From Escherichia coli (GTDB lineage: Bacteria; Pseudomonadota; Gammaproteobacteria; Enterobacterales; Enterobacteriaceae), in NCBI RefSeq assembly GCF_030384885.1, contig NZ_CP128613.1: 64,000 nt of DNA, one strand, 5' to 3'. Below, piece by piece: positions 26,632 through 33,875 of the stretch; positions within the stretch are counted from its first letter, which is position 1, and each line of letters begins with the position of its first letter. Under the pieces are notes generated by a model. It was not told the DNA's origin. It ran no database searches and saw only the letters and a list, made by a program, of their open reading frames with translations. The position numbers were made by a program, and so were the translations under genes.

Positions 26632-28056
26632 ATGGATGGCATGGGATGGATGATTATTTTGGTACTTCCCTTTCTTTGGATGGGCTATGGACTGGCGTTG
26701 TTAATCATAACGGGGTGCGCTTTTGAATCTAAGAGGATTCGTCGCGTTCTGCTATGGGGTGTTGCGCCCCAGTTTATTATTCTTTGTATTACGACCTTAT
26801 TGCTTTATTGGATTAACTCTCGGTTAATTTATGTTTTTGTCTTTTTTCAGCCGGTTTTATGCATCACTACGGCAATTTTTTTGTTTGCTGGTAAAAAAAC
26901 ACAATATTCCAGATTGCTGTTTACTCTGTCTCATGTGATTTTTCTCGCTGGAGTTTTATATCAGGGGCATAGGGAAAATCTGCAACACATAATTAATAGC
27001 GACTGGAAGGAATATAAAATAACGCGTTTATTTGAGCAAGTGCAGGACAATGGAGCGCATGCGCTGAATAACGATGTAACTTGTTCAGAATTAATGCAAC
27101 TACTCACCCTGGCAGCGGAACGTGATGACGTCAAAGAAGAGACGTTACGTACTCTTATTGCAAAGAGAGTATCGCCATTTCTGACAATGTCAGATAACTG
27201 TACGGGTGAGGATTCAGTAGAGATTTATTCTGTAGATACTACACCTTTTATGGCGGCTATTCAGAATCATAATATACATTCTGTTCGTTTTTTTAGTCAA
27301 TTGCTTATGGGAAACTCACCAAAAGCAAAAAATAATCGTGACATTGTGCGCCGGGCAAACCCTTTGATCGAAGTGTATAAATATAGTCATGGTTCAAAAA
27401 AACAACGTAACTCAGGGTTAGAAATAAGTAAGCAATTAATCGCTATTATGCCAGAACTATTAACAGATGCCGTCTGGCGTGCCGTGCTCAATGTATATGA
27501 TGCCGATGCAGCACGATGGTTCTGGCGTAAGCAACCACCAGAAAATCGGTTGTATCGCTTAAAGGCTATGGCATTAATACCACAAACAGATGCGCTGTTG
27601 GCAGAGATTCGACATACTCCAGAGGTACTGAATATCTCGTCTGAGGGGGACCTGAATGAAGAGGAGTTTCTCCATTTCTTAATTTATGGAGGAGATACCG
27701 CTGTAATACATGCACTGGTTGAAAAAGGAATAGTTAACTGGCAGCACCTTATGAACATTGAGGGGTTTGATAAGGACCCCTTAATATGGTCTATTTCAAA
27801 ACTGGGAGAAAACGACAATGACCGGGAGGTTTTGGCATTAATTATTCATGATATTAATGCGCAAAACGCACTGCCGGAGGAACGCATTGCCAAATATTTA
27901 ACGTGGACGGGAGCAATGGGCGAGATTTTTTTAAAGGCGGGCGTACATTGTGATAAGTTATATGCGGCAATTGAGTCCGACAAAAAGCGAAATAATGGCA
28001 TGTATAGTCAAAACGCCAGGGAAGAAGTGGATCGCGTATGTACGCCCACAAAATAG
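26632..28056 (+). CDS. Accessory membrane-anchored ankyrin-repeat protein (about 4 N-terminal TM helices plus a roughly 370-aa soluble domain); function unknown
   Basis: 474-aa ORF; RBS aagga 6 nt upstream of the ATG. Hydrophobic segments at roughly residues 6-30, 39-62, 65-86 and 95-110. C-terminal ankyrin-like repeats (EFLHFLIYGGDTAVIHALVEKGIVNWQ; DPLIWSISKLGEN...VLALIIHDINAQNA). Markedly AT-rich by eye. Not part of the K-12 ftsP-ygiQ junction as I recall it. Confidence 0.75.
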   Translation: MDGMGWMIILVLPFLWMGYGLALLIITGCAFESKRIRRVLLWGVAPQFIILCITTLLLYWINSRLIYVFVFFQPVLCITTAIFLFAGKKTQYSRLLFTLSHVIFLAGVLYQGHRENLQHIINSDWKEYKITRLFEQVQDNGAHALNNDVTCSELMQLLTLAAERDDVKEETLRTLIAKRVSPFLTMSDNCTGEDSVEIYSVDTTPFMAAIQNHNIHSVRFFSQLLMGNSPKAKNNRDIVRRANPLIEVYKYSHGSKKQRNSGLEISKQLIAIMPELLTDAVWRAVLNVYDADAARWFWRKQPPENRLYRLKAMALIPQTDALLAEIRHTPEVLNISSEGDLNEEEFLHFLIYGGDTAVIHALVEKGIVNWQHLMNIEGFDKDPLIWSISKLGENDNDREVLALIIHDINAQNALPEERIAKYLTWTGAMGEIFLKAGVHCDKLYAAIESDKKRNNGMYSQNAREEVDRVCTPTK

Positions 28057-28185
28057 GAGCAGTTTGGGGCGGTTAAGGGATAAAAAATAAATGCCTTTCG
28101 CTATCTGTCAGGGCGAATCTCACCATTTGCTATACCTTCCATTGGCGATGAACAGTATTCTACCCGCACTTTTTTTACGATTGCG

Positions 28186-28992
28186 TTGAAGCATTACAAC
28201 GCCCGCGCCATCCGCGCGTTTAGCCGCTTTCTGCAAGGAAATTCCTCAAAAGCGCAGGAATATCGCGCGATTGTTCATCAAAAAAATCCACTGCAGCAGA
28301 TGTACCGGGGAATAAGTTTGCCAATTCGTTTTAGTGAAGAAGAGATCGCCCGCCACATTGTTGCCGCTCGCGAGATAAGCCTCACCTTGCTGCCCCTGAT
28401 GCCAGAATTATTAAACGAAGAGGCGTATGCAAATGTCATTGATGCTAATGACAGCGCAACGCTGAAGGCTTTTTGGCAGATCCAGCTGCCGCCCACGCCG
28501 GTTTTACGCCTGGAAGCGATGTCGGTAATTCCCATGACAGCGGCACTGGTTCAACAGGTGAGGGAGTCACCAAAGCGGCTTGAACTGGAAGATAAAAGTG
28601 GCAGGACAGTACTAACTTACATCGTGCGCTTTGGGAATATTGCCGCAGTACAGGCACTGATTGACGCTAATCTGATCGACTGGCAACGGCTCCGCCAATC
28701 GACAGGAAGGTCAACACCATTATTACTGGCGATCTGGCGACAAAAATACGACGATGATTATGTAATCTTCCCATTGATTTTAAAGGACATGCTGGCAAAA
28801 AATGCGCCACCCTCAGCAGAGGAAATAATGAACTGCATTAAGGATGGTATGACCGCAGATGATTTTTTATCTGCCGGAATGAGCAACACGCAATTCTGTT
28901 CTGCGATTGAACAAAGCCTCCAGGCGAAAACGTCAGTATTACCGGCGAATCGATTACGCCATCTGCAATCCTCGCGGTGTGCAAAGCTGTAA
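28186..28992 (+). CDS. 5'-truncated paralog of the preceding ankyrin-repeat protein (soluble domain only); may be a gene remnant or pseudogene
   Basis: 268-aa ORF starting at a TTG with no obvious RBS. Aligns along its whole length to residues about 205-460 of the upstream protein (RAFSRFLQGNSSKAQ vs RFFSQLLMGNSPKAK; VLRLEAMSVIPMTAALVQQVRESPK vs RLYRLKAMALIPQTDALLAEIRHTPE; GRTVLTYIVRFGNIAAVQALIDANLIDWQ vs EEFLHFLIYGGDTAVIHALVEKGIVNWQ). In-frame homology continues upstream of the TTG back to a stop at about 28081. Confidence 0.55.
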   Translation: MKHYNARAIRAFSRFLQGNSSKAQEYRAIVHQKNPLQQMYRGISLPIRFSEEEIARHIVAAREISLTLLPLMPELLNEEAYANVIDANDSATLKAFWQIQLPPTPVLRLEAMSVIPMTAALVQQVRESPKRLELEDKSGRTVLTYIVRFGNIAAVQALIDANLIDWQRLRQSTGRSTPLLLAIWRQKYDDDYVIFPLILKDMLAKNAPPSAEEIMNCIKDGMTADDFLSAGMSNTQFCSAIEQSLQAKTSVLPANRLRHLQSSRCAKL

Positions 28993-29107: not shown

Positions 29108-31327
29108 ATGAGCTCTATCTCCCTGATCCAACCGGATCGCGACCTGTTCTCCTGGCCGCAGTACTGGGCCGCCTGTTTTGGACCGGCACCGTTTTTGCCG
29201 ATGTCTCGTGAAGAGATGGATCAACTTGGCTGGGATAGCTGCGACATCATTTTGGTTACTGGCGACGCGTATGTCGATCACCCAAGCTTCGGGATGGCGA
29301 TTTGCGGTCGTATGCTTGAAGCGCAGGGCTTTCGCGTCGGGATCATCGCCCAGCCAGACTGGAGCAGCAAAGACGATTTCATGCGTCTGGGTAAACCGAA
29401 TCTGTTTTTCGGTGTTACTGCTGGCAACATGGACTCGATGATCAACCGCTATACCGCCGATCGCCGTTTACGTCATGACGATGCCTACACACCGGATAAC
29501 GTCGCGGGTAAGCGCCCGGATCGCGCCACCCTGGTTTATACCCAACGCTGTAAAGAGGCGTGGAAAGATGTGCCGGTGATCCTCGGCGGTATTGAGGCTA
29601 GTTTGCGTCGTACCGCGCATTATGATTACTGGTCTGATACCGTGCGCCGTTCCGTGCTGGTGGATTCCAAAGCCGACATGCTGATGTTCGGTAACGGTGA
29701 GCGTCCGCTGGTGGAAGTGGCGCATCGTCTGGCGATGGGTGAGCCGATTAGTGAAATCCGCGATGTGCGTAATACCGCGATTATCGTAAAAGAGGCGTTG
29801 CCAGGCTGGAGCGGTGTGGATTCCACCCGTCTTGATACTCCTGGGAAAATCGACCCGATCCCGCATCCGTATGGTGAAGATTTGCCGTGCGCGGATAACA
29901 AACCGGTGGCCCCGAAAAAGCAGGAAGCGAAAGCCGTAACCGTGCAGCCACCGCGCCCGAAACCGTGGGAAAAAACTTACGTATTGCTGCCTTCTTTCGA
30001 GAAAGTGAAGGGCGATAAAGTGCTGTACGCTCATGCTTCGCGTATTCTGCACCATGAAACCAACCCAGGCTGCGCGCGTGCGCTGATGCAAAAACATGGC
30101 GACCGCTATGTATGGATCAACCCGCCTGCCATCCCGCTTTCTACCGAAGAGATGGACAGCGTCTTTGCGCTGCCGTACAAGCGCGTGCCGCATCCGGCTT
30201 ACGGTAATGCCCGAATTCCGGCTTACGAAATGATCCGTTTCTCGGTCAACATTATGCGCGGCTGCTTTGGCGGCTGCTCTTTCTGCTCTATTACCGAGCA
30301 TGAAGGTCGCATTATTCAGAGCCGTTCGGAAGATTCGATCATCAACGAGATTGAAGCGATCCGCGACACCGTGCCAGGCTTTACGGGCGTGATTTCCGAT
30401 CTCGGTGGGCCAACTGCCAACATGTATATGTTGCGCTGCAAATCGCCGCGCGCCGAGCAGACTTGCCGCCGTTTATCGTGCGTTTACCCGGATATTTGTC
30501 CTCATATGGACACTAACCACGAACCGACGATCAACCTCTATCGCCGCGCGCGTGATCTGAAAGGCATTAAAAAGATCCTCATCGCTTCCGGCGTGCGTTA
30601 TGACATCGCCGTGGAAGATCCGCGCTATATCAAAGAGCTGGCGACCCATCACGTTGGCGGTTATCTGAAGATTGCCCCGGAACATACCGAAGAAGGGCCG
30701 TTATCGAAGATGATGAAGCCGGGCATGGGCAGCTATGACCGCTTTAAAGAGCTGTTCGATACTTACTCGAAACAGGCAGGTAAAGAGCAATATCTGATCC
30801 CGTATTTCATCTCCGCACACCCCGGTACGCGTGATGAAGATATGGTGAATCTGGCGCTGTGGCTGAAAAAGCATCGCTTCCGTCTCGACCAGGTACAGAA
30901 CTTCTACCCGTCGCCGTTGGCTAACTCCACCACCATGTATTACACCGGGAAAAACCCGCTGGCGAAGATTGGTTACAAGAGTGAAGACGTCTTCGTACCG
31001 AAGGGCGACAAACAGCGTCGTTTGCATAAAGCGTTGTTGCGTTACCACGATCCGGCAAACTGGCCGTTAATCCGTCAGGCGCTGGAAGCGATGGGTAAAA
31101 AGCATCTGATTGGCAGCCGTCGTGATTGCTTAGTGCCTGCGCCAACCATTGAAGAGATGCGCGAAGCCCGCCGTCAGAACCGCAATACCCGTCCGGCGTT
31201 GACTAAACATACGCCGATGGCGACCCAGCGTCAGACACCTGCTACGGCAAAAAAAGCGTCGTCTACGCCATCTCGCCCGGTGAATGCTGGCGCGAAGAAA
31301 CGCCCTAAAGCGGTGGCAGGTCGTTAA
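29108..31327 (+). CDS. ygiQ: Radical SAM protein YgiQ (UPF0313 family)
   Basis: 739 aa; Cys motif CFGGCSFCS; basic, Pro/Ala-rich C-terminal tail. Confidence 0.93.
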
Positions 31328-31329
31328 GT

Positions 31330-31365
31330 GAAATGTGCCCGGCAGCAATGATGCTGCCGGGAAAT
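31330..31365. terminator. Hairpin between ygiQ and the convergent Lpp-like gene
   Basis: cccggcagc aatgat gctgccggg inverted repeat followed by an AT tract. Confidence 0.45.
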
Positions 31366-31596
31366 TTATAACCTTGGTTTATAAGGACTGTTACGAACGT
31401 CTAAGCGGTAATGCGCTCTTGCTGTTTCGTCTTTAACTTGCTGAATTTCCGGACGCAGGGCGTCAATATCCTGTTGCAGTTGATTAATTTTGTTATTCAA
31501 TGCCTGAATATCATGTTCCAGGTGTTCAATTTTGGCATTGCTGGTACAGCCAGCAAGACACAGCGCCAGCGGAATGGATAAGATAAGTTTGTTCAT
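31366..31596 (-). CDS. Lpp-family small outer-membrane lipoprotein paralog (about 76 aa)
   Basis: Internal Met of ORF 31366..31647 gives MNKLILSIPLALCLAGC (lipobox) followed by a coiled-coil region resembling Lpp and YqhH (AKIEHLEHDIQALNNKINQLQQDIDALRPEIQQVKDE). Confidence 0.7.
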   Translation of the reverse strand: MNKLILSIPLALCLAGCTSNAKIEHLEHDIQALNNKINQLQQDIDALRPEIQQVKDETARAHYRLDVRNSPYKPRL

Positions 31597-31613
31597 TATG
31601 AATTCCAGAACCG

Positions 31614-31871
31614 TCATTCCGCATACATACGTAAGCAGCGCAGGCAATCGAAATAGTCCTGGGCGTCAAGGCGCGTATTGGCTCTGTTAGCTTCGGATTT
31701 TGCCGCATAGATTTGCGGGCGTAATGCTTTCATATCCTGCTCAAGTCGGGCAATTTTGGCATTTAACGTCTGTACGTTGCTCGCCAGCTGATTGACCTTT
31801 TGCTCATTGACGCAGCCGCTGAGCAAGCAGGTTGCCAGAACAACAGCCCCCACGGTGAAAATCGTTTTCAT
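31614..31871 (-). CDS. yqhH: Lpp-family lipoprotein YqhH
   Basis: 85 aa, [20 protein letters not shown] lipobox; coiled-coil Lpp-like sequence. Confidence 0.88.
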
Positions 31872-31921
31872 ATAGTATTCCCTTTTATTTATTGTTCCGA
31901 CTAATTGTTATTTTATTCAGC

Positions 31922-32848
31922 TCATTGCTTTAATCTGGCGGCGGTTTTCACCTCAATCTGTTTAAGTAGGCTGCCGCTGTTTGGACGGATAAAATCAGCG
32001 ATTTCCCACTTACCTTCGCGCCGCTGTAAAATCAATTCTTGCTCTTCGTTGTTGCCATTGGTCAGCGTAAAACGAACATGAATGCGGGCGGAATCGGCGG
32101 TTTTCTCCAGGACTCGAATTTCATCAACGCGTGAAAATAGCGACTCTTCGCCAAAACAGATCGGATTGTCGTAAATAAATTGCCGTTCTATTTGCATATC
32201 CTCATCGGGATTGTTGGCAGTCTTGAAGGTGGTTTTATAGAAGGCATTGACCGCCTGGCGGTAAGAGTCGGAAACCACCCACGTCCACGGCCAGCTATAA
32301 TCAGCAATATGTTCAAAGAGTTCGGCAACAAAGGCTTCCGGCTGTTCTTTTTGCAACGAAGCTATAGCGGCCAGCGTTTTTTCATTCTCGCTATTAACTG
32401 CTTGTAAGACGCTGCCATGATTGCTGACAATATCGTCAATGACCCAACGACCATTTTCCGCCACCATTTTCAGTGTCTGCGTGGTCTTTTCTTTATCGTC
32501 TTTAAAGATACGAAAGCGCACAACGGCATCGGCATGATCGGCGTCAGGTTGGGTTATCGCTACGCTTTCTAACACCAGATCGCCAAAATCCTGACAATCA
32601 CAAACCGGATCATAATCCAGCCAGCCAATATTGCCCGGCAGCGTAAGATTGTCGTTCAGGGTAAGCGCCTGTTGAATACGCGCAGAAGTTATCGCTCGCT
32701 CTCCGGTTTCACCAAAATAAGGCGTACTGGCATCTGATTTATAGTTCTGATAAATCTGCCGGACTGTTTGTTCTACGGTCTGTGAGGGAGGCTGTGCGTG
32801 TACGGTAAAACTTGCCAGGGCTGCTAAAAACAGAAGTATTATTTTCAT
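31922..32848 (-). CDS. yqhG: Periplasmic DUF3828 protein YqhG
   Basis: 308 aa with signal peptide; synteny. Confidence 0.88.
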   Translation of the reverse strand: MKIILLFLAALASFTVHAQPPSQTVEQTVRQIYQNYKSDASTPYFGETGERAITSARIQQALTLNDNLTLPGNIGWLDYDPVCDCQDFGDLVLESVAITQPDADHADAVVRFRIFKDDKEKTTQTLKMVAENGRWVIDDIVSNHGSVLQAVNSENEKTLAAIASLQKEQPEAFVAELFEHIADYSWPWTWVVSDSYRQAVNAFYKTTFKTANNPDEDMQIERQFIYDNPICFGEESLFSRVDEIRVLEKTADSARIHVRFTLTNGNNEEQELILQRREGKWEIADFIRPNSGSLLKQIEVKTAARLKQ

Positions 32849-33047: not shown

Positions 33048-33875
33048 TTAGCCGCCGAACTGGTCGGGATCGGGGCCGAGGCGTTTGCCCTGGTCGAGTT
33101 TGGCAATTTCACCTAGCTCGTCTTTGTCGAGACGGAAATCCCAGACATCAAAGTTTTCGGCAATACGTGAAGGTGTGACCGATTTCGGGATCACCACCAG
33201 GCCGTTATCCAGATGCCAGCGGATAACAATCTGCGCCGGGGTTTTGCCGTATTTATCTGCCAGATCGCGAATGACTTTCTGATCGAAAACGCCTTTCCCA
33301 CCTTGCGCTAATGGGCTCCAGGATTCGGTCTGGATTTTGTGTGTCGCGTTCCAGGCGTGAAGCTGGCGTTGCTGCATCAGCGGGTGGAGTTCAATCTGGT
33401 TTATCACCGGCGTCACGCCAGTTTCATCAATCAGGCGTTGCAGGTGGTGGATCTGGAAGTTGCACACGCCGATGCTTTTGATTAAGCCCTCTTTTTGCAA
33501 TTCGATCATGCCCTTCCATGCTTCGACATAATGGTCGATAGCAGGAACGGGCCAGTGCATTAAGTAAAGGTCGACATAATCAAGCTGGAGTTTTTTCAGG
33601 CTGTCGAGCAGGGCTTCGCGGGGGCGCTTGTGGTCGTCGTTCCAAAGTTTAGTGGTGATGAACAGTTCTTCTCTGTTAACTGAGGCATTTTTCAGGGCTT
33701 TGCCGACACCTTCTTCGTTCTTATAGGCCGCGGCGGTATCAATCGAGCGATAACCCACGTCTAACGCTTTTTGAATGGCAGTGATTACTTCCTCATTACT
33801 TGCTTGCCAGACGCCCAGTCCCAACTGGGGCATGACATTGCCATCCTGTAGCTTAATAACGGTTGGATTAGCCAT
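33048..33875 (-). CDS. dkgA: Aldo-keto reductase DkgA (2,5-diketo-D-gluconate reductase A)
   Basis: 275 aa; AKR motifs; downstream of yqhD. Confidence 0.93.
   Translation of the reverse strand: MANPTVIKLQDGNVMPQLGLGVWQASNEEVITAIQKALDVGYRSIDTAAAYKNEEGVGKALKNASVNREELFITTKLWNDDHKRPREALLDSLKKLQLDYVDLYLMHWPVPAIDHYVEAWKGMIELQKEGLIKSIGVCNFQIHHLQRLIDETGVTPVINQIELHPLMQQRQLHAWNATHKIQTESWSPLAQGGKGVFDQKVIRDLADKYGKTPAQIVIRWHLDNGLVVIPKSVTPSRIAENFDVWDFRLDKDELGEIAKLDQGKRLGPDPDQFGG

Follow-up and report, generated by a model that had tools for sequence, protein, structure and literature searches.

The interval between yqhH and ygiQ in a divergent lineage of Escherichia contains a gene, here called ORF2, that encodes a third paralog of the Lpp family, distinct from both lpp and yqhH. 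ORF2 genuinely codes for protein. In the set of complete genomes, Escherichia cryptic clade I is fixed for the gene and E. coli sensu stricto lacks it. Its product has a lipobox and a coiled coil that is collinear with that of Lpp, and it ends in leucine. We suggest that the protein could serve as a non-crosslinked Lpp-like strut anchored in the outer membrane, either alone or mixed with its neighbour YqhH, a reading to which we give an even chance. The gene was found in a window of 64,000 nucleotides (from contig NZ_CP128613.1) that is overall ~96–97% identical to the K-12-type chromosome.

The ORF2 gene and its neighbourhood

The locus lies in the 29–34 kb region of the window. On the minus strand the order of genes is dkgA (33048–33875), yqhG (31922–32848), yqhH (31614–31871) and ORF2 (31366–31596, stop codon included), and these converge upon ygiQ on the plus strand (29108–31327), a radical SAM gene that provides the conserved positional anchor of the ORF2 orthologs. 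The product of yqhG is a DUF3828 protein of the YbjP/YqhG/Tai3 family, encoded 50 bp upstream of yqhH. The initial annotation had described two adjacent minus-strand genes, each encoding a lipobox signal peptide (LAGC and LSGC) followed by an Lpp-type coiled coil, and both are located as it claimed. It had also named one of the pair as YqhH, and this identification is secure. The 85-amino-acid lipoprotein, with its LSGC lipobox at 31812–31823 on the minus strand and its lipobox cysteine at Cys20, reaches 197.7 bits with NF007428, the NCBIfam equivalog for ‘lipoprotein YqhH’ (cut-off 120), carries the same name in RefSeq, and matches the Pfam LPP family (PF04728) with E = 1.7e-12. The yqhH gene is found in 5415 of the 5426 complete E. 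coli genomes. Compared with K-12-type genomes, it has dS = 0.42 and one amino-acid change only; the corresponding dS for ygiQ is 0.25.

ORF2 encodes a prolipoprotein of 76 amino acids, MNKLILSIPLALCLAGC followed by TSNAKIEHLEHDIQALNNKINQLQQDIDALRPEIQQVKDETARAHYRLDVRNSPYKPRL, which is present in RefSeq as WP_001037461.1 under the generic name ‘LPP leucine zipper domain-containing protein’. The longest mechanical frame begins with a TTG codon at 31647 and would give 93 amino acids. Trimming of the start to an internal methionine, giving about 76 amino acids, had been proposed at the outset; RefSeq uses the same start, and the orthologs of Salmonella and of a Salmonella-like contig (L004) begin at the equivalent methionine, which supports the shorter form. 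An upstream ATG (31617–31615) overlaps the TGA stop of yqhH (31616–31614) as ATGA. Initiation at this codon would extend the signal peptide by seven residues (MTVLEFI; 31597–31617, minus strand), and 83-amino-acid forms are also called in databases, but the mature protein is identical either way. The Shine–Dalgarno sequence preceding the 76-amino-acid start is weak (GGA, with 7-nt spacing).

Several lines of evidence show that the frame is real. The ORF2 cluster is present on roughly 2,300 contigs in a collection of 15 billion proteins, over which the mature protein is nearly invariant, with changes in the mature part occurring as rare singletons. Three common alleles differ solely in the signal peptide (C13Y and A15V), and the common alleles retain a valid lipobox, LVGC. 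The ratio dN/dS is 0.20 when the clade I gene is compared either with the Salmonella ortholog or with that of L004, indicating purifying selection on the minus-strand frame. Damaged alleles are rare; in one the lipobox cysteine has become glycine, and another has an in-frame deletion of 14 amino acids. The latter is found in a low-coverage metagenome contig (L005, 121–330; protein P0003), and corresponds to exactly two heptads. It would shorten the coil with the register unshifted, and could be an artefact of assembly.

ORF2 begins 17 bp after yqhH, and a GC-rich hairpin of 10 bp (31338–31361, fold energy −21.5 kcal/mol) lies between the convergent stop codons of ORF2 and ygiQ, beginning 4 nt past that of ORF2. 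The same hairpin directly follows yqhH in K-12-type genomes. In K-12 yqhGH is treated as a single unit, the promoter of which is activated by BglJ–RcsB (PMC3950696). Taken together, the 17-bp spacing, the conserved hairpin and the existence of the yqhGH unit make it probable that ORF2 belongs to that operon as its third gene; yqhG is probably the first. A consensus scan found no minus-strand promoter in the operon, and also missed the mapped K-12 promoter upstream of yqhG; we therefore only infer that ORF2 is transcribed. The hairpin was not flagged in a simple scan for terminators because its T-run is weak. A search of the interval for RNA elements using Rfam gave sub-threshold matches only.

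Relationship to Lpp and YqhH

ORF2 clearly belongs to the Lpp family. It matches Pfam LPP (PF04728) with 42.1 bits (cut-off 29.1; E = 1.1e-10) over positions 1–52 of the 53 in the profile, and it aligns with the solved chains of Lpp (9RLD and 1EQ7) with E = 3.4e-13 to 4e-12, gap-free from Cys17 to Lys73 (mature positions 1–57). A gap-free alignment with an E-value of 3.4e-13 places the similarity far beyond chance. Yet the protein fails both curated models of its relatives, scoring 71.4 bits against NCBIfam PRK15396 ‘major outer membrane lipoprotein’ (cut-off 108), and 53.8 bits against the YqhH equivalog NF007428 (cut-off 120), of which it also lacks the two-cysteine tail. Its identity is 46–47% to Lpp and 40–42% to YqhH (47 and 40%, respectively, for the ungapped mature positions 1–57). 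It is thus no closer to YqhH than to Lpp, and we reject a recent tandem duplication of yqhH as its origin. Identity is 46–51% (51% ungapped over mature 1–57) to a further group of proteins lacking the terminal lysine for which we use the working name lppX; these are ‘LPP leucine zipper domain-containing proteins’ of 82–83 amino acids.

The elements of Lpp can be followed along the sequence of ORF2. The lipobox L14-A15-G16-C17 (31546–31557, minus strand) conforms to the pattern [LVI][ASTVI][GAS]C with a residue other than aspartate at +2, being followed by Thr-Ser, and cleavage before the cysteine would leave a mature protein of 60 amino acids. Residues 19–68 (31393–31542, minus strand) form a predicted coiled coil that is collinear with the Lpp helix and contains an ALRP motif, with its proline at position 49 (mature Pro33). 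There is a 3–4 hydrophobic repeat in the register of the Lpp core, collinear with the solved Lpp trimer, so that mature positions 7, 10, 14, 17, 21, 24, 28, 31, 35, 38, 42, 45 and 49 are I, L, I, L, I, L, I, L, I, V, T, A and L. All but one of the 14 a/d positions of the core are occupied by hydrophobic or small residues, like those of Lpp. An AlphaFold2 (AF2) model of the monomer, based upon an alignment of 18 sequences, predicts one helix spanning residues 4–68, its coil having a pLDDT of about 95; residues 69–76 form a tail that is not helical. The model concerns a single chain and carries no information on trimers or partners.

Lpp itself (PDB 1EQ7, PF04728) resembles ORF2 in its lipobox signal peptide, in a mature sequence starting C-[ST]-S-N-A-K-I, in the 3–4 core and in the single long helix, which is predicted in the case of ORF2. 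The two differ in the composition of the core, which is a Val/Ala zipper in Lpp but rich in Ile and Leu in ORF2, and in their ends, ...KYRK in Lpp and ...KPRL in ORF2. Mature position 33 is serine in Lpp, whereas ORF2 and YqhH have proline. A proline in the middle of the coil could perturb the helix of ORF2, although Pro33 remains helical in the AF2 model. Lpp is moreover universal and highly abundant, while ORF2 is restricted to a lineage. YqhH (b3014 in K-12) has more of the context in common with ORF2, being a member of the same family that is adjacent and in the same orientation, that lacks a terminal lysine and that has the A-L-R-P motif; yet it has a longer tail with two cysteines, where the ORF2 tail has none.

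Distribution and the paralog array of the yqhG–ygiQ interval

The initial annotation was unable to place the second gene in K-12. Indeed ORF2 is absent from MG1655, where yqhH and ygiQ are separated by a hairpin spacer of 42 bp bearing no other annotation, and it has no counterpart among annotated K-12 genes. Alignment with a K-12-type genome shows that ~245 bp containing ORF2 sit exactly between the shared GC-rich hairpin and the stop codon of yqhH. In the region 31000–32000 the local identity to K-12-type sequence is lower around the indel, at about 90–93%.

How widespread is ORF2? A sensitive blastn search found it in just 18 of the 5426 complete E. coli genomes, always in the same position and with the same annotation. 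When an unlinked 3-kb hyb segment was compared, the 18 closest genomes (98.6–100%) were the same 18, and all others were at or below 98.0%, and thus the carriers of ORF2 form one divergent lineage. They include strains 2013C-4282, which is 100% identical to the window, and EC42405, both of which have been published as Escherichia cryptic clade I (PMC10100065). A pan-genome association study of clade I reported one clade-specific gene only, which is different from ORF2 (PMC10100065); ORF2 may therefore not be strictly clade-specific among draft genomes. Within clade I ygiQ is mosaic, with 93–99% identity between genomes. ORF2 is absent from the species representatives of E. albertii, E. whittamii and two further Escherichia species. 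A scan of the GTDB species representatives returned no ORF2 orthologs, since the genomes standing for E. coli sensu lato lack it and no Salmonella carrier is among the representatives.

Conservation extends beyond this one lineage and its roughly 2,300 contigs, so the doubt raised in the initial annotation, that the gene might lack conservation in other genomes, does not apply. Orthologs that are 70–71% identical are found in some Salmonella enterica (P0097 and P0077) and on the Salmonella-like contig L004; in the latter and in three Salmonella loci (L013, L019 and L020) they likewise sit next to ygiQ. Between clade I and Salmonella, ORF2 has dS = 0.84 and the adjacent ygiQ dS = 1.13. ORF2 is thus about as old as its flanks and not a recent import. 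Sliding-window identity to loci of the K-12 type, of clade I and of other Escherichia shows divergence over the whole window, a mosaic ygiQ and no clean boundary, and local import of foreign DNA was rejected on this basis. An origin in a phage or plasmid was rejected because the best matches are either Lpp itself or phage homologs of Lpp, at 36–46% identity. Large phages of Salmonella, Cronobacter and Erwinia encode full-length Lpp homologs that are 36–42% identical to ORF2 (for example NC_016071.1, 70143–70376, and MT920315.1, 134747–134977). The ORF2 of clade I may have been retained from an ancestral array that has suffered multiple losses, or may have been gained by homologous recombination.

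Comparison of the yqhG–ygiQ interval between species reveals other paralogs. In E. whittamii, Escherichia sp. E1V33 and E. albertii there is an lppX gene for a protein of 82 amino acids between yqhG and yqhH (L009, 2691–2939; L008, 2691–2939; and L010, 2697–2945), with a tail ...HPPRW or ...NPPRY, and nothing follows yqhH. The equivalent yqhG–yqhH gap is empty in the window and in K-12, at 50 bp. Escherichia sp. MOD1-EC7003 has a hybrid gene at this locus (L011, 2959–3207), in which the signal peptide of lppX is fused at a GCVN lipobox to the mature part of YqhH; this apparently arose by deletion between tandem paralogs. In this genome a second YqhG-like gene, of 307 amino acids, lies downstream of the hybrid in place of ygiQ. 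In the Salmonella loci (L013, 439–5246; L019 and L020, both 1416–6231) the order is yqhG, a yqhH-like gene, a four-gene island, an 82–83-amino-acid paralog ending ...YHPRL or ...YHPPRL, the ORF2 ortholog, the hairpin and ygiQ. Some S. enterica therefore have three Lpp-family genes, in an array that is split by the four-gene island, which includes an amidohydrolase. An Escherichia-type yqhG–yqhH–ygiQ segment, about 93–96% identical to the window, is also found in an assembly named ‘Flavobacterium paronense’ (L012), and is almost certainly contamination of that assembly.

The lppX genes are carried by E. albertii, E. whittamii, Escherichia sp. E1V33, Salmonella, Klebsiella sp. and Kluyvera sp., with tails ...HPPRW, ...NPPRY and ...HPPRL. 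Like ORF2 they lie in the yqhG–ygiQ interval, and encode a QLQQDI[DN]ALR core and a Pro-Arg-hydrophobic end without terminal lysine. They differ in their position between yqhG and yqhH in Escherichia, and in a longer tail with a WPDG segment. Since Salmonella has both types side by side, lppX is not orthologous to ORF2. We group these genes informally as the lysine-less Lpp paralogs of the yqhG–ygiQ interval, defined by a location beside ygiQ or yqhH, a QLQQDI[DN]ALR[PQ]E core and an end ...P-R-[LWY]; the grouping is our own and does not correspond to a curated family. ORF2 has all of these features, and the other members are found at L004, L008–L010, L013, L019 and L020.

Three further proteins (P0099, P0101 and P0102) are hybrids in which the N-terminal half of one paralog is joined at QDINALRPE to a C-terminal half of the ORF2 type. 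The hybrids, together with the different extra paralogs of each lineage, lead us to regard the yqhG–ygiQ interval as a recombining array of Lpp paralogs lacking the terminal lysine. Unequal recombination between tandem paralogs evidently both creates and deletes members.

The C-terminal tail and proposed function

The tail of ORF2 has the sequence RNSPYKPRL-COOH (31369–31392, minus strand), with neither a terminal lysine nor a cysteine. The only lysine of the tail is K73, at position −3, and this is replaced by serine in the orthologs. YqhH ends ...RMYAE. A lysine at the C-terminus is the residue used by LdtA/B/C for linkage to meso-DAP, and is reported to be necessary for the attachment of Lpp-box proteins to peptidoglycan by L,D-transpeptidases (PMC12274547, PMC12681736); covalent attachment of ORF2 is therefore not expected. 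It had been proposed initially that the tandem paralogs may alter tethering of the envelope, with a check for this lysine. Both proteins lack it, and the proposal gains no direct support; if they influence tethering at all, they must do so by an indirect route. Nor does ORF2 have the -[RH]ICK-COOH end of LppB. Cys17 is the sole cysteine of the mature protein, and so disulfide bonds of the LppB type are not possible.

What, then, might the protein do? As the last gene of the yqhG–yqhH operon, ORF2 would be transcribed up to the hairpin that follows yqhH in K-12. After export, the product would be lipidated at Cys17 and then processed by signal peptidase II. The residue at +2 is threonine, which is not a retention signal as aspartate would be, and hence Lol should sort the lipoprotein to the inner leaflet of the outer membrane. 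There it is expected to form a parallel trimeric coiled coil of the length of Lpp, either by itself or mixed with its operon partner YqhH, which has a proline at the same position of the coil. Such trimers would add to or dilute the pool that is competent for tethering, while making no tethers themselves. Lpp is vastly more abundant, and the stoichiometric effect of ORF2 on tethering might be negligible.

A related possibility is that ORF2 modulates Lpp directly. Heterotrimers of ORF2 and Lpp would have fewer terminal lysines, and crosslinking of Lpp to peptidoglycan would fall when the operon is induced. There is a precedent in Salmonella LppB, which reportedly forms heterotrimers with LppA and reduces crosslinking, and the authors suggest that YqhH might act likewise (preprint 10.1101/2025.11.13.688167). 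Like ORF2, LppB is a tandem extra paralog of Lpp, and the role proposed for it is to adjust tethering, not to supply it (PMC12681736). ORF2 has the length and register of Lpp together with a compatible a/d core. Yet it is only 46–47% identical to Lpp, and the residue replacing Ser33 of Lpp is the proline that it has in common with YqhH and not with Lpp. LppB moreover differs from ORF2 in retaining a terminal lysine (...RICK-COOH) and being crosslinked, in owing its behaviour to a C-terminal cysteine, and in having its gene beside lppA, outside the yqhG–ygiQ locus. We consider direct modulation of Lpp by ORF2 to be unlikely.

The tails of the family fall into three classes, ending ...YRK in Lpp, containing two cysteines in YqhH, and having the Pro-Arg-hydrophobic end in ORF2 and lppX. 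The last might be a docking motif directed towards the cell surface or a partner, in which case the array would have diversified because the tails are under selection. The partner could be an L,D-transpeptidase, for which the tail would be an unreactive mimic of the ...RK of Lpp, a PDZ-type protease, an outer-membrane protein or some exogenous agent. P74 and R75 are invariant in an alignment of eight members of the subfamily, and C-terminal alignment pairs KPRL of ORF2 with KYRK of Lpp so that the penultimate arginine is kept. The tails form discrete classes while the coils remain similar, and the hybrid genes have exchanged N- and C-terminal halves. The neighbouring yqhG bears the RefSeq name YqhG/Tai3 family, and this might be added to the same side of the balance. 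However, all these are patterns of sequence, and one Salmonella allele of the ORF2 type ends ...SPIL, without the arginine; we regard a docking role as distinctly unlikely. RefSeq refers yqhG in some cases to the ‘YbjP/YqhG family’ and in others to the ‘YqhG/Tai3 family’. Tai3 is the immunity protein of a type VI amidase effector, and the constant linkage of yqhG to Lpp paralogs that lack the terminal lysine may be a hint to function.

The remaining explanations are weaker still. ORF2 could be a functionless remnant that has persisted in clade I and is heading for loss, as in the other Escherichia lineages. Its absence from 5408 of the 5426 complete E. coli genomes and from the four Escherichia species representatives would fit such a history, as would the rare damaged alleles. 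Against this, dN/dS is about 0.2 across a dS of about 0.8, and all 18 complete genomes as well as the roughly 2,300 contigs have an intact gene whose mature sequence does not vary, making decay very improbable. A second covalent tether between outer membrane and peptidoglycan, that is a true Braun-type lipoprotein, would accord with membership of the Lpp family and with a helix of the same length; but the C-terminal residue is leucine, the lysine at −3 is not conserved in the orthologs, the score against the curated Lpp model is well short of its cut-off, and the terminal lysine is reported to be necessary (PMC12274547, PMC12681736), so that this is extremely unlikely. The idea that ORF2 is carried by a mobile element or prophage, as an exclusion lipoprotein or a phage-type homolog of Lpp might be, can be practically dismissed. 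Some phages of Salmonella, Cronobacter and Erwinia do encode Lpp homologs, but the best phage or plasmid matches are only 36–46% identical; the gene is flanked by core genes, and neither an integrase nor repeats nor a tRNA is present; its position beside ygiQ is conserved across genera; and its flanks are as divergent as the remainder of the window.

A wider reading takes in the whole locus. The yqhG–ygiQ interval of Enterobacteriaceae could be a recombining array of cassettes for Lpp paralogs without the terminal lysine, in which the conserved coils mix in trimers while the interchangeable tails, of the two-cysteine YqhH type or the Pro-Arg-hydrophobic type, serve as unreactive mimics or docking motifs and tune the L,D-transpeptidase-mediated tethering of outer membrane to peptidoglycan under the control of Rcs/BglJ, with ORF2 as the cassette of clade I. 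This is speculative, and we place it no higher than the docking role.

Searching of the literature found no paper describing ORF2, and a search for YqhH gave nothing relevant beyond the items cited here. The work on LppB indicates that minor paralogs can tune the tethering of outer membrane and peptidoglycan, and ORF2, lacking both the terminal lysine and the tail cysteine and being fixed in its lineage, offers a simple natural test case for Lpp-like proteins that cannot be crosslinked. It also provides a handle on the function of YqhH. Clade I is, according to one report, an emerging source of pathogens of the STEC and ETEC types (PMC10100065), and ORF2 is a possible additional marker for it. 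We regard the gene as of modest interest, arising from its restriction to clade I and from the recombining array of paralogs with their distinct class of tail; if ORF2 is simply a redundant free-form Lpp-like protein, its value is only that of a catalogue entry.

The other side of ygiQ looks like a second variable spot. Two related genes, one of 474 amino acids and one of 268 by ORF call, lie between ftsP and ygiQ in the window (26632–28992), the smaller of which is named ‘ankyrin repeat domain-containing protein’ in RefSeq. In K-12 ftsP adjoins ygiQ directly, and E. coli KMS2005 has an island there encoding a TRAP transporter and a dehydrogenase. Similar genes, of 473–474 amino acids, are also found beyond ygiQ in the Salmonella loci.
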